Assembly: GCF_006345805.1 (NCBI RefSeq)
Contig: NC_043016.1
Location: 16,554,001-16,618,000 of the forward strand
DNA length: 64,000 nt
Direction: 5' to 3'
Source of the DNA: Octopus sinensis
Taxonomy: Eukaryota
Below are positions 13,141 through 50,705 of this stretch, in pieces. The notes beneath the pieces are model-generated. The model made no database searches and had not been told where the DNA came from. It was given only the letters and a program-made list of their open reading frames with translations. Both the position numbers and the translations under genes were made by a program. Every line of letters begins with the position of its first letter. The stretch's first letter is position 1.

Positions 13141-15570
13141 GTGCTTTTCCACCTTTCAGGTTATCATCACCATCACTGTTTCGCATCCATTTTTAGCTGG
13201 CAGGAGATGAACAGTTTGACATCAACTGGTCAACCAGGGAGCTGTCCAGTCCCCAACTGTCCATTGTGGAACGATTTCTACAGCTGGATACCCTTCCTAA
13301 TGCCAACCACTTAAGGGTGGGCTGAGTGCTTTTTACATGCCACCAGCATGGCCACGTTTACACAGCATTGGTACACATGCATTAACGCGATACCAGCACA
13401 GGAATTTCTTAATTGGCAGCGACATGGGTGCTCTTTAAATTTTATTTAGCTAGATGTACTAGAAGTGCAGCAAATGGCCCCATCTCCCAGTCCTTTGTCA
13501 TTCCCTCAGAGAGGCACAGTATCTGAAGATCTTTTCTCACCACTATGTCACACATCTTCCTGGGTCTACCCCTTCCACGAGTGTCCTCCACCGTTAACTC
13601 AGTGCAGCATATTTATGTAATGAGGGTAGCAGTGTGAAAAAGTGTCACACCCTAGCGGTTGAGGGAACCTGTGGAAGAGGTAGACTCAGGAAGACCTGGG
13701 ATGAGGTGGTGAAGCATAACCTTCAAACATTAGGCCTCACTGAGGCAATGACTAGAGACTGAGACCTTTGGAAATATGCTGTGCTTGAGAAGACCCAGCA
13801 AGCCAAGTGAGACCATAACCTGTTGGCTACGAGAGAGTGTAAGGACCTTGAGAGAAAAGTTGGACCTAAGACACATCAGATGTGGTATGCAATAGAGACA
13901 ACTGTGCTGGTATGGTCATGTGGTGAGAACGGATGAGGATAGCAGTGTGAAAAAAAGTTGAGTGATGAAGGCTGGAGGGTATATCAGCCGAAACGTGTTA
14001 ACAACAAAGAAGATGAGGACAAATATCCGTCAATTATAACTAATGTACATAATTCCTCATCTCTTAAATATAAAACTGTAAAACCTATTTCTGCACTCAT
14101 TCCTGATCACTCTCACACCCTCCTTCTGTTGTTCTTGCCACAGGCTGGGTAACCATGTACCTCCTTCACAGGAAGACACCCGTTTGTTTGTCTGTCACAC
14201 TCTAACCTCGAGACCACCTCCTCCAATGCCCCTGTGGTGCCTTGTAAAAAACATTCAGTCCACACTGTAAAGGGGTTGACATTTGAAAGGGCACCTCTCT
14301 TCAAAAATTATGCCAAAACTGCCCCTACCTGTGTTGGTACTTCTTAAAGAGCACCCAGTCGACACTGTAAAGGGGTTGGCATTTGGAAGGGGTTTAGCTG
14401 TGAAAACCATGCCTAAACTGACCTTGTCAATGCTGGTGTCATGTAAAAAAGTACTATGTCCACTCTGCAGGGTACTTGACTTTCTGAAGAGTATCCAGCT
14501 GTAAAAAGCATGGCAAAAACTGACCCTAAGCTTGCTGGTGCGACTTAAATGTATCCAGGCCACACTGTAAAAAGGTTGGCATTTTGAAGAGCATCCAGCT
14601 GTTTAAAGTCTAGCAAAACTGACCTTGCCTGTGCTGGTGTCACATAAAAAGCTCTCAGCGAATTCTGCGGAGTGGTTGGTGTTAGGAAGGGCTACCAGCT
14701 GTAAAAAACCATGCCAAAACACACAAAAATGGTGCAGGCTCCTGTGAAACCGTCCGACCCATGCCAGTATGGAAGGAGGACATTAAACAAGGATGATCTT
14801 CATCATGATCTTAAGCTAATCTTTTAGTCAAAATTTGAAAAGAAAAACATCCACAGAATACCACATTGGCTGCTGGAATGGACCAAAACCTGATAGAACC
14901 AAACTAGGTTAAAATTCCTGTTCTGGTGTAGAGGTAGACCCAGGAATACATGGGATGAGGTGGTCAAACATGACCTTTGAATATTGGGTCTCACAGAGGC
15001 AATGACAAAAGACCGAGACTTCTGGAGATATGCTTTGACTGCAAAGACCCAACAAATAACATGAGTTCATGGCTGTTTCCTGCACCAGCTTCACATAGCA
15101 GCCCCAGCCCATCGATTGCAGGACGGCCTGCTGTGCTTACCTTGGATCGTAGGGTGACCTGCTGTGCTTGAGGAGACCTATTGAGCAAAGTACATCAACA
15201 ACAAATAAAAATCAAATGGAAATTGTAGTTGTGATACCTGTGCTGGTGGCACGTAAAAAGCACCATCTGAACGTGGCCGATGCCAGCCTCCCCTGGCACC
15301 TGTGCCAGTGGTACGTAAAAGAAACCCACAACACTCACAGATCGGTTAGCATTAGGAAGGGAATCCAGCTGTGGAAACACTGCTAGATCAGACTGGAGCC
15401 TGGTGCAGCCTCCTGGCTTCCCAGATCCCGGTCAAACCGTCCCACCCATGCTAGCATGGAAAACGGATGTTAAACGATGATGATGAGTGCCCTTAACTTA
15501 GCATCAAGTACCAGATATACCTCAGTAAAACGTGCTCCCCAGTGTTTTAACAATGGAAAAAGATACTTAC

Positions 15571-43239: not shown

Positions 43240-43991
43240 TATATATGTGTACATATTACATGTACATCTTTATATATATATATACATCTACACATAAAAT
43301 ACAAAATACAAAGTTATATCTTGATATCGCTAGTGATAACAATACTCAAAATATATAACAGACTGGAATTGTTAGCCCGTCTCTTGCAATTCCGATCAAT
43401 TGGATCTTGTCCTCCCTCTTGTATAGAAGTGTGGCTACAATCCAGCCTACCTCTACTTCTGGGGGACATTTTAAATTTTTATCCGGGACGTCCTACGTAC
43501 CAGATATAAAGGTAAAAATAAAATATTTCCACTTTGCAAGGTTCGAGTCGAGTACTCCCTTACATGCTCCGTTGACTCGAACCTTGCTTCTATTGTGGCT
43601 AATTTACCACCTCTGGTTAGATATCTTTCATAGTATTGTGTCCCTGTTTGGGGAAATTGACAATATTTTCACCATTTACACGGAAGTATTTTTGTTAAAA
43701 TGTCTTCGATAGGAGAAAGTCCAAAAATGAATTTCGCTGCAGCTGTCAGATTCTAGCCACACTTCTATACAAGAGGGAGGACAAGATACAATTGATCGGA
43801 ATTACAAGAGACGGGCTAACAATTCCAGTCTGTTATATATTTTGAGTATTGTTATCACTAGTGATATCAAGATATAACTTTGTATTTTGCATTTTATGTA
43901 TAGATGTATATATATAGATGTACATGTAATATGTACACATATATACATGCACTAACACTATGACCCGGCAACGACGGGTCTTTAATGCTAG
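43240..43991. mobile_element. rearranged Helitron 3' segments forming an inverted repeat
   Basis: 43245-43455 is the reverse complement of ~43755-43960; 3' hairpin + CTAG ends at 43991. Confidence 0.75.
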
Positions 43992-44155: not shown

Positions 44156-44381
44156 CTACAAGAAATCAGAATAATTTTCAGTTAGTTACTTTCATGGCCC
44201 TAATCCAAAACAGAATTTAATAGGTGCATATTTGAAGAAATTACAGAGAGGTCAGTAAAATGATTTTAATGTCTACAGGAATTACAATTTAAAGGGCATG
44301 TTTGGAACACAAGCAAAGATTATTTACATTATTTACATTACTTACATTTGACGGATATTTGTCCTCATCTTGTTTGTTGTT

Positions 44382-44427
44382 AACACAACCTTTCGACTGA
44401 TATACCCTCCAGCCTTCTTCAGGTGTC
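44382..44427 (-). ncRNA. minimal hammerhead (family A), stem III mutated
   Basis: GACAC CUGAAGA A GGCUG..CAGUC GAAA GGUU GUGUU. Confidence 0.6.
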
Positions 44428-44568
44428 TTGGGGAAATTTCAAACCTGCGTCTCATTCCTAATGTATTTTTCGAAATTATTATTATTACTCAGTTCAATAT
44501 TTAAGAGATGAGGAATTATGTACATTATTTACAATTGATGGATATTTGTCAACATCTTGTTTGTTGTT

Positions 44569-44614
44569 AACACAACGTTTCGGCTGATATAGCCTCCTGC
44601 CTTCATCAGGTGTC
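44569..44614 (-). ncRNA. minimal hammerhead (family A)
   Basis: GACAC CUGAUGA A GGCAG..CAGCC GAAAC GUU GUGUU; one stem II mismatch. Confidence 0.78.
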
Positions 44615-44679
44615 TTGGGGAAATTTCGAACCTGGGTTCTCATTCCTAAGGTATTTTTTGATGTTATTACTATTGTTGA

Positions 44680-44751
44680 GGTCACTGCTTGGCATCGAAC
44701 TCAGAATCTTGGGGTTAGTAGCCTGCGCTCTTAACCACTACGCCATATGCC
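44680..44751 (-). other. tRNA-like sequence / Pol III type-2 promoter (not a functional tRNA)
   Basis: A-box TGGCGTAGTGG, anticodon-like loop CT-ACT-AA, B-box GAGTTCGATGCC; acceptor and T stems poorly paired. Confidence 0.7.
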
Positions 44752-44972
44752 TGTGTGTAATTATGGAATGAATTTTAGGGCTTATAAATCTAATATTTTC
44801 CTAATACCAGTTCCCATATGCTGCTCATATCTGCACTCGGTCTGCTTAGGAGGTTGTTGTGTCCTAGCATATGTGCTGTTTCTTTTAGTTTTTGTATTTT
44901 CCATGGTGTTTTCTATATAATAACATTGAAGAATATCTTATGAATGAGAACCCAGATTCGAAATTTCCCCAA

Positions 44973-45018
44973 GACACCTGATGAAGGCTGGAGGGTATAT
45001 CAGCCGAAACGTTGTGTT
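44973..45018 (+). ncRNA. minimal hammerhead (family A), best-preserved copy
   Basis: GACAC CTGATGA A GGCTG gagggtatat CAGCC GAAAC GTT GTGTT; palindromic ACGT stem III; predicted cleavage after 45013. Confidence 0.85.
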
Positions 45019-45174
45019 AACAACAAACAAGATGAGGATGAATATCCATCAATTGTAAATAATGTACATAAATCCTCATCTCTTAAATATAGAACTGTAC
45101 AAGCAGAGATTGTTATATAAATTCATGATGGAATATTTATACACCAAAATCTTACAATACTGTTCCTGCTGCTG

Positions 45175-45515
45175 AGATCCCCTTCGGTCATGACTGACCA
45201 TGGGATCGCACCTAGAAAGTTACCCTCCCAGGCATGAGTCTCGGCAAGGTTGTTTATGGAAGACCAGCAGTCGCCCATGCCTTCCAGCCTCCCCTCTTCA
45301 TGTCACCGATGTTATCCAAGGGAAAGGCAAAGGGGCCGATGCAGCTTGGCACCTGTGATGTTGCAACTCATTTCTACTGCTGAGTGAACTGGAGCAAAGT
45401 GAAGAAATAAAGTGTCTTGCTCAAGAACATAACATGCACCCTGGTCCGGAATTCGAACTCACAACCTCACGATTGTAAGCTCGATGCTCTAACCACTGAG
45501 CCATGTGCCTTCACA
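45175..45515 (-). mobile_element. tRNA-derived SINE, fourth family (related copies ~55715-55955, ~59930-60180)
   Basis: TGGCTCAGTGGTTAGAGC...GAGTTCGAATTCC head followed by TTCTTGAGCAAGACAC. Confidence 0.75.
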
Positions 45516-46860
45516 TATTGTTGCTATAATACTGAGAAAAACAATACTCAAGCGAGGGCATTGCCAGTGCCTCTGGACTGGATCCCGTGCCAGTGGCAAG
45601 TAAAAAGCACCATTCGATAGTGATTGTTAACAGCAACAGAAGCCAGTCAAGGCGGCTCTAGCAGTTTCAGATAGTGCTTTTGACATCCCACCGGTACAGG
45701 GGCCAGAGGAGGCTGGAAACGGCCACGATCAGTTGGTGCTTTTTATGTGCCACCAGCACAGAGGCCAGAGGAGACTGGCAGCAGCCACGATCTGTTGGTG
45801 CTTTTTACATGCCACTGGCAGAGGGGCCAGAAGGCGCTGGTAATGGCAACAATCAGATGGTGCATTTTATGTGCCACCGGCATGGAAGCCATTCAAGGCG
45901 GCACTGGTATCGGCTATGTTTGGATGGTGCTTTTTACATGCCACTGGCACAGGGGCAAGAGGAGGCTGGCATTTGCCATGTTCAAATAGTGCTTTTTATG
46001 TGCTACCAACACAGAAGCCAGTCAAGGCGGTGCTGGCATCGGCCACATTCGAATGGTGCATTTTACATGCCACCGGTACAGGTATCATAACTACAATTTC
46101 CATTTGATATTTATTTTGATGTTGATGTACTTGACTCAATAGGTCTCCTCAAGCACAGCAGGTCACCCTGCGATCCAAGGTAACTACAGTAGGTCACCCT
46201 ATGATTCAAGGTAAGTACAGTAGGTCACCCTACGATCCAAGGTAAAACACAGCAGGTCGCCCTATGCTTCAAGGAAAGTACAGCAGGTCGTTTCAACCAA
46301 TTAATATCAAATAAAAGATTTTGAAAATTAAAGGTGTCAGATTTTCAAGGTATGTTTGAATGGGCTGGGACTGGTTATGCGAAACTAGTGTAGGATACAA
46401 TCGTGAACTCACTTTATTTGCCAGGCCTTCGCAGTCACAGCAGGTTGCCCTACGATCCAGGGTAAAAAGAATATATTTAAATAAGAACAATGGCTGCAGG
46501 GTGGTCAATGTCAAATATATGTTGAGAGCTCACTGCCCAGCATTAAGGTGGCGAGCTGGTAGAAATGTTAGCACGCAAGGCGAAATACTTAGTGGTATTT
46601 CGTTTGCCGTTATGTTCTGAGTTCAAATTCCGCCGAGGTTGACTTTGCCTTTCATCCTTTCTGGGTCAATAAATTAAGTACCAGTTACGCACTGGGGTCG
46701 ATGTAATCGACTTAATCCCTTTGTCTGTCCTTGTTTGTCCCCTCTATGTTTAGCCCCTTGTGGGCAATAAAGAAATTAGAAATGCTGGGCAGAGTATGTA
46801 ATTGGACAGGGTTGAGGGGGGAAAAAATTTTCAAATAATAATTAAGAAAATCTGGCTTAC

Positions 46861-50494: not shown

Positions 50495-50705
50495 TATTTA
50501 CATTATTTACAATTGACGGATATTTGTCCTCATCTTGTTTGTTGTTAACACGTTTCGGCTGATATATCCTTCAGCCTTCATCAGGTGTCTTGGGGAAATT
50601 TTGAACCTGGGTTCTCATTCCTAAGGTATTTTGCAATGTTAGTATTATTATTCAGTTCTATATTTAAGAGATGAGGAATTATGTATGTTATTTACATTAT
50701 TTACA
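50495..50705 (-). mobile_element. family-A pLTR with hammerhead core carrying a 3-nt deletion at the cleavage site (same lesion at 13963-14078, +)
   Basis: GACAC CUGAUGA A GGCUG..CAGCC GAAACGUGUUAAC. Confidence 0.7.

Follow-up and report, generated by a model that had tools for sequence, protein, structure and literature searches.

Several described systems come close to the octopus element reported here. According to the accessible text of its report, the Anolis element PAc, of the Penelope/Poseidon group (Frangieh et al. 2024, PMC11167929), has a reverse transcriptase (RT) followed by a C-terminal GIY-YIG domain in one ORF, a hammerhead ribozyme that overlaps the ORF start, inverted and partial-tandem pLTRs, and two internal sites at which reverse transcription was shown to start and which delimit a 30–40-nt tail. 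The octopus family resembles it in all of these. Unlike PAc as described there, its pLTR begins with a tRNA-derived A/B-box head, the 5' ends of its copies stop at that head, and its ORF is without Pol III terminators. The Schistosoma repeats Sm-alpha and Sj-alpha (PMC6765202, PMC2770079) are, like the octopus repeat, tRNA-derived and apparently Pol III-transcribed, and they bear a hammerhead. However, they are non-coding, propagate in tandem and carry canonical hammerheads, and the accessible parts of the two reports describe no module common to them and an autonomous partner, whereas in the octopus family the autonomous element has head and hammerhead as its own terminal repeat.

A Pol III promoter in a terminal repeat is also known. 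The TRIMp3 elements Cassandra, Helenus and Ajax (Kojima 2024, PMC10886601) carry one that is derived from a small RNA and regenerated on transposition, as proposed below for the octopus family. They are non-autonomous, LTR-bearing and no longer than ~1.3 kb, whereas the octopus Penelope-like element (PLE) encodes an RT and an endonuclease, and the available text of the same work holds that the autonomous partners of Pol III-promoter TRIMs must use Pol II. Finally, metazoan non-LTR retrozymes (PMC7229834, PMC7761336, 10.64898/2026.07.22.740005) share type-I hammerheads and pLTR-related repeats of 150–400 nt with the octopus family, and pLTR-derived examples are described in vertebrates, coral and insects (10.64898/2026.07.22.740005). 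They differ in being built of tandem units, each with a hammerhead, and in yielding abundant circular RNAs that are highly self-paired (PMC7229834); in the octopus family, tandems are rare accidents and the monomer is predicted to be unstructured.

Both the pairing of a Pol III promoter with a hammerhead (Sm-alpha) and the placing of such a promoter in terminal repeats (TRIMp3) are therefore known, in each case from non-coding elements; a coding PLE with a putative promoter of this kind is apparently new. In the open literature, no tRNA-headed or Pol III-transcribed autonomous PLE was found; Repbase, Dfam, subscription papers and supplements, which lay outside the scope of that search, may hold the family. 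The accessible text of the octopus-related PMC13282606 makes no mention of hammerheads, and that of PMC7229834 and PMC7761336 makes none of octopus.

The window analyzed here is a stretch of 64,000 nt from Octopus sinensis (GCF_006345805.1, contig NC_043016.1, positions 16,554,001 to 16,618,000), and its copies were sought in the 2.72-Gb genome. An earlier note, made from the letters of the window, had described a tRNA-headed tandem hammerhead cassette at its positions 44320–45100. As judged from sequence comparison, this cassette is an ordinary damaged insertion of an autonomous PLE (RT plus GIY-YIG, ~2.7 kb), 5'-truncated and carrying an inverted arm and a partial tandem, because of its sister copies, the linkage of head and ORF, and the order of parts in full-length units. 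Inverted arms and partial tandems are typical of PLE insertions (PMC8557442). The repeats at the locus are far beyond chance, since the inverted arms (180 nt) are 92% complementary and a 33-mer of the hammerhead has 1,997 exact matches in the genome versus 0 for a reversed control.

On the plus strand lies the inverted pLTR arm (44918–45097), recognized by repeat and sequence comparison, which is 5'-truncated and has the long, tail-bearing family 3' end at its terminus. The remainder is on the minus strand and reads, in order, ORF 3' fragment, UTR, tRNA-like head, AAT-rich linker, pLTR body 1 and pLTR body 2. The ORF fragment (44790–44915) holds the ~40 last codons, with small deletions and a truncated 5' end. 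A Pfam scan of its 37-aa window ORF gave no match; it can be identified as the C-terminus of a GIY-YIG endonuclease because longer sister copies reach the endonuclease and the RT, and the family aligns to the PF01541-bearing protein P0064. Copy comparison places a short 3' UTR at 44753–44789, and at its end a family palindrome, degraded here, overlaps the start of the head. The head itself (44680–44752) has its A box at 44745–44735 and its B box at 44700–44691. The linker, pLTR body 1 and a ~35-nt tail follow (44490–44679, by sequence comparison), with the likely ORF start codon, placed by family comparison, at 44643–44641. Body 2 (44328–44489, also by sequence comparison) is a partial tandem that is truncated in the linker and ends at the short family 3' end. 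A position scan puts the first TTTT downstream of the head in flanking DNA, at 44257–44260 on the same strand, where Pol III would be predicted to stop.

Each pLTR segment contains a hammerhead of the minimal type I, in which stems I and II are 5 bp each, stem III is a palindrome of four bases and a single unpaired base precedes stem II, a layout of the sort described for PLE pLTRs (PMC4209133). Only the inverted one (44973–45018, plus strand, predicted cleavage after 45013) is intact, with its core preserved and stems I and II fully paired. In fold checks, the hammerhead of body 1 (minus strand, predicted cleavage after 44574) has a stem II mismatch, and in that of body 2 (minus strand, predicted cleavage after 44387) the stem III palindrome is broken. 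The earlier note had picked out the GIY-YIG-like ORF end, the head, the two predicted cleavage sites 187 nt apart and the inverted third copy at these same places, and had proposed a Penelope-like origin and dimer-type hammerheads. All of this is borne out, as is its remark on the stem III mutation downstream, to which the broken stem II pair upstream can be added. Across 99 hammerhead copies, the free core position is the sole clear non-CpG variant (63 T, 34 A). Rfam reported neither a hammerhead nor a tRNA in 44200–45600 at E 10 or less, and a 10-kb scan gave sub-threshold matches only, mostly on microsatellites.

Using the ORF fragment as a query brought up sister copies that also cover a GIY-YIG-type domain and an RT. 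The aligned long copies, from which duplicate loci were removed before the family majority was built, give a single frame of 829 aa in that majority. Individual copies are 89–97% identical to it, and among 151 RT matches no copy is intact and no open frame exceeds 575 aa. The RT domain matches RVT_1 (E 3e-8), and across RT and endonuclease the family protein is 42% identical to P0064; Pfam GIY-YIG had no direct match in the three family fragments scanned, and no solved structure matched. Proteins of the closest relatives are 54–68% identical, and one relative (P0003) has a matching N-terminal peptide. Two copies (L153, L163) contain the full unit of head, linker, ATG, hammerhead, tail, ORF (RT, GIY-YIG), UTR, head and pLTR. 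Here the hammerhead sits inside the start of the ORF and would cut ~23 codons into it. By every feature tested, the element is an endonuclease-bearing (EN+) PLE: it has a single ORF with a PLE-type RT and then GIY-YIG; pLTRs, partial tandems and an inverted 5'-truncated arm; a 30–40-nt tail at one end; and a minimal type-I hammerhead in the pLTR. Its likeness to the Penelope/Poseidon clade is one of architecture as described. Some copies (L002/L003, on G000:C9955, and L034) are 97–98% identical to the window copy and have the same private deletions, with longer ORFs and different flanks; they could be a small subfamily or a source lineage.

The tRNA-like head retains A and B boxes and, when compared with 15 distinct genomic tRNA sequences, is closest to tRNA-Arg(TCT), with 50 of 73 nt identical (z 7.5). 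Neither ARAGORN nor Rfam calls it as a tRNA or finds a cloverleaf, which rules out a functional tRNA gene. By its position across copies, the head is the 5' part of the family pLTR. Of 30 RT-anchored copies, 21 extend as far as the head, and in all 21 it follows the ORF end; ORF-end anchors gave the same order in 27 of 30 loci, the window's own among them. On the other side of the head, a further 29 head-anchored loci were compared: the pLTR is directly adjacent in 23, and in 4 an insertion separates the two. Of four older copies fetched, two (L367 and L369, 75–83% identity) keep the head, one (L366) keeps part of it and one (L368) ends earlier. The possibility, raised in the earlier note, that the head stands beside the pLTR only at this locus as a chance SINE insertion is ruled out by the head following the ORF end in sister copies, older ones included. 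A separate SINE family with an unrelated tail is also rejected, because head, linker and pLTR together form the repeat of the autonomous element. The head is a likely internal Pol III promoter.

In distant PLE loci from metagenomes, no tRNA was found in the 60 of 80 that were scanned; when the A/B-box criteria were relaxed, 13 of the full 80 had loose matches, which may lie within or outside the pLTRs. The palindrome at the head start (44769–44743, degraded in the window) resembles the relic of a fold-back junction, and the element may thus have acquired the head through its own way of forming inverted junctions.

The ends of the copies point to the head as well. Exact 20-mers are counted 989 times just upstream of the head, 4,938 times inside it and 65 times at the ORF start. 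In a set of 70 hammerhead-anchored loci, taken in genome order via an exact hammerhead match, 45 reach the 5' border of the head, and 34 of these stop within the 27 nt from -20 to +6; the 11 that pass the border have ends spread across ~600 nt. Intact heads give a sharper picture: 63 of 71 end at -9 to +1, none at -10 to -20, and 8 continue. Four distinct loci (L153, L163, L310, L321) hold head, pLTR and ORF start in one contiguous run, and the 5' ends of this set are at -3, -5, -8 and -8. When 30 loci were anchored at the 5' ORF instead, no uninterrupted passage into a preceding unit was seen in any of them. Transcription beginning near -7 would be 13 nt ahead of the A box, about the distance that is usual for type-2 Pol III promoters. 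The A and B boxes are at tRNA spacing with 5' ends just before the A box, as in a type 2 Pol III unit, and the head probably marks the 5' end of the RNA; both statements on 5' ends are read from DNA copies.

At the other side, the family has two 3' ends ~35 nt apart. An inverted arm is present in 41 of the 70 hammerhead-anchored loci, and 34 of these 41 inverted pairs (34 of 38 that could be classified, P 6e-7) join one long and one short 3' end. This pairing (L061–L130) suggests priming on both target strands, with one reverse transcription start site per strand, in a coupled reaction. Among 30 loci anchored at the ORF start (L306–L335), the ORF extends just 60–230 nt beyond the tail in 21, and another pLTR often comes next; for one of these 21 (L314), the break is a gap in a long copy.

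The coding strand is also unusual. In mammalian cells, the minimal signals for Pol III termination are described as TTTT and TVTTT (PMC8466645). In the family majority (2,662 nt, built from 97 kb of natural copies with a coverage of at least 12 everywhere), the sense strand has no run of four or more T (T4) and one TVTTT, as would befit a type 2 Pol III unit. Single copies hold 41 T4 runs, which are scattered, the most shared occurring in 3 of 35 and 5 of 117 copies. Eighteen T-matched controls carry 2.3 T4 per kb, which gives 5.5 expected versus 0 observed (P 0.004), and the 11 lowest-T controls give P 0.02. For T4 or TVTTT together, 1 is observed versus 10.4 expected from the T-matched set (P 0.00035), P is 0.005 with the 11 lowest-T controls and 0.012 by shuffling, and 1 of 62 controls is as low. 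Internal nulls for these T-run tests are modest (P 0.01–0.03). Synonymous shuffles for T4, for example, give P 0.03, a conservative null, since the family also avoids the codons GTT and CTT (12 of 99 versus 49 of 201, P 0.014). Their odds ratio is 0.44 against a control median of 0.90 and is as low in 1 of 62 controls. Runs of four G are absent from the majority too, where just 1.1 were expected.

The 62 controls are 43 related PLE ORFs from metagenomes, 29–45% identical to the family, and 19 chromosomal LINE ORFs of the same genome; the closest relatives of the family are outside this set. Also left out were frames below 350 aa, a locus whose longest frame is other than the PLE ORF (L244), and 30 nearly identical LINE loci of uncertain origin that lie on unplaced contigs and all contain T4. 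One control PLE ORF of 479 aa (L227, Ga0314668_10026746) likewise lacks T4 and TVTTT, and its 2-kb contig shows no clear A/B head.

The reading favored here, with slightly more confidence than doubt, is that the full-length coding element is transcribed by Pol III from the internal promoter in its head. The full proposal goes further, to an autonomous coding retrotransposon that would run on Pol III from end to end, with a captured tRNA promoter in its pLTR, terminators purged from its 2.5-kb ORF, an uncapped RNA that is translated, and SINE-like offspring from the same transcript; for this, the scales are evenly poised. Pol III would start ~7 nt before the head, cross the terminator-free ORF and the 3' pLTR and stop at the first flanking T run, and the promoter would be regenerated at each transposition because the head lies in the terminal repeat. 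Reverse transcription would be primed by the element's protein at two internal sites, separated by ~35 nt, as was shown for Anolis Poseidon. When this happens in the 3' pLTR, full-length or, mostly, truncated coding copies would result; in a head-started pLTR, the products would be the far commoner SINE-like copies of ~280 nt, which number in the thousands. Priming on both target strands would yield the inverted arms, and a template jump would yield the 187-nt tandem of the window.

The weak step of this mechanism is the translation of an uncapped Pol III RNA whose hammerhead cuts within the coding region. Self-cleaving ribozymes can induce cap-independent translation (PMC13725137). This solution is less apt here, because the cut falls after the start codon and because uncleaved RNA is reported to be the main substrate in PAc (PMC11167929). 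Characterized PLEs, moreover, have pLTR promoters, introns and poly(A) transcripts (PMC8557442), which counts against the Pol III reading.

One could also consider the head as a Pol III promoter for short RNAs only, comprising head, hammerhead and tail, that is, a SINE mobilized by the PLE. The short RNA would stop either in the flank or soon after the ORF begins, where it would meet a weak terminator, and the coding mRNA would come from Pol II read-through or from a Pol II promoter in the same pLTR. This is unlikely, though it deserves to be taken seriously. It accounts for the five-fold excess of the head over the upstream UTR, poses no translation problem, and agrees with the usual shortness of Pol III transcripts (PMC10886601). 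Also, the unit has its only TVTTT (a TCTTT) 77 nt beyond the tail, and it is there (358–363) that 5 of the 21 short ORF-start fragments end, a hint of a discrete third 3' end at a weak terminator. However, the ends near this motif form no clean peak, with 6 of the 21 at 343–352, and the avoidance of T runs along the whole ORF and the full-length copies that start at the head would both be left unexplained.

Somewhat more doubtful is the suggestion that the head is a SINE relic captured in the pLTR, inert or co-opted by Pol II. The 5' pile-up would then come from cDNA fold-back at the palindrome, and the scarcity of T runs from the A-rich strand bias of retroelements. The sense strand is indeed 38% A, the head lacks a cloverleaf, and Pol II-type pLTR promoters are described in Penelope and Chlamys (PMC8557442). 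The palindrome (about -18 to +8) spans the start of the head, and fold-backs make up 13 of the 63 junctions found there, so that cDNA fold-back could yield a 5' peak without a start site; these 13 junctions are compatible with an RNA starting at -7 and could arise without it too. By a crude test, however, the other 50 of the 63 junctions have no long fold-back; the T-matched retroelement ORFs are not freed of T4 by their composition, and the head persists in an older subfamily.

The earlier note had itself taken the tandem for a functional Pol III-driven retrozyme whose 187-nt monomer circularizes and spreads, and although the head keeps undamaged A and B boxes and T4 is absent before 44260, so that one transcript could span both hammerheads, and although non-LTR retrozymes derive from pLTRs (10.64898/2026.07.22.740005) and Sm-alpha joins a Pol III promoter to a hammerhead (PMC6765202), this is highly improbable in view of two mutated ribozymes, one with a broken stem III palindrome, and of tandems that are rare, irregular and poorly structured. 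A direct tandem of two hammerheads was found at 2 of the 70 hammerhead-anchored loci, with periods other than 187 nt; in non-LTR retrozymes, tandems are conserved and each hammerhead is intact. The predicted 187-nt circle (33% GC) is 51% paired, with a z of +0.39 versus 200 shuffles, and the two local units are 88% identical, on par with unrelated family copies. In the window, one outer end is long and one short, and the inner junction joins a long end to a linker-truncated copy; it may have come from a template jump. The 187-nt tandem is a rare local duplication, an ordinary PLE partial-tandem insertion, and not a conserved unit. Of the proposal in the earlier note, the likely Pol III promoter is supported, and the tandem retrozyme or circular RNA unit is not supported.

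Three raw RNA-seq runs and one contig set were aligned to one copy (L160) at 85% likeness. Between 6,603 and 9,765 reads mapped per raw run, about equally in both orientations, in libraries that may be of related species, have unspecified strandedness and whose reads are cut at the AAT linker. Depth climbs toward the 3' end and tracks genomic copy number, and loose ends mark both family 3' ends. There is no pile-up of starts at the head or the hammerhead, in reads that are insensitive to small, uncapped or circular RNA. Among the 15 of 51 joints that were listed, back-joints of 31 and 34 nt occur and none goes back ~187 nt, a weak test of the circle. The signal looks like read-through of intronic and UTR copies.

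The SINE/LINE divide assigns Pol III to short non-coding passengers and Pol II to coding elements. If the Pol III reading is true, this rule would not hold for an autonomous PLE driven by a tRNA promoter, which would also provide a natural, kilobase-long Pol III mRNA. One could then test cap-independent translation and the function of PLE hammerheads, which is so far unexplained, and one route would open from a PLE to tRNA-hammerhead repeats of the Sm-alpha kind. Should Pol III play no part, the thousands of copies that begin at the head would still map, from the genome alone, the 5' end of a PLE RNA and both reverse transcription start sites. Octopus tRNA-derived SINEs named OK, OR1 and OR2, the last a CORE-SINE, were reportedly described by Ohshima and Okada in 1994, a work cited in PMC4758252. 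The short copies of the present family may be filed as SINEs in repeat libraries.

Some minor observations can be added. The near-identical LINE loci on unplaced contigs (L176–L205) include many intact ORFs and occur on such contigs only; contigs similar to theirs hold tRNAs that differ from the chromosomal ones, possibly from a second organism in the assembly. In the window, ~230 nt downstream of the tandem, where the earlier note had placed an acceptor, there is a splice-acceptor-like AG with a hydrophobic exon-like stretch, which would mark a candidate host gene; a Pfam scan of the stretch gave no match. Two further truncated copies of the window pLTR lie at 13963–14083 (plus strand) and 50495–50696 (minus strand), and the latter is also a partial tandem, in which a tail is joined to a linker-truncated copy, with a single hammerhead. 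Another tRNA-like head with A and B boxes, unlike the first and attached to a body of its own (45434–45510, minus strand), is probably an unrelated SINE. An inverted repeat at 43263–43928, with 180-nt arms that are 94% complementary and 306 nt apart, is MITE-like, and minisatellite-like arrays with periods of 62–67 nt and 31 nt occupy 45650–46082 and 46151–46289.
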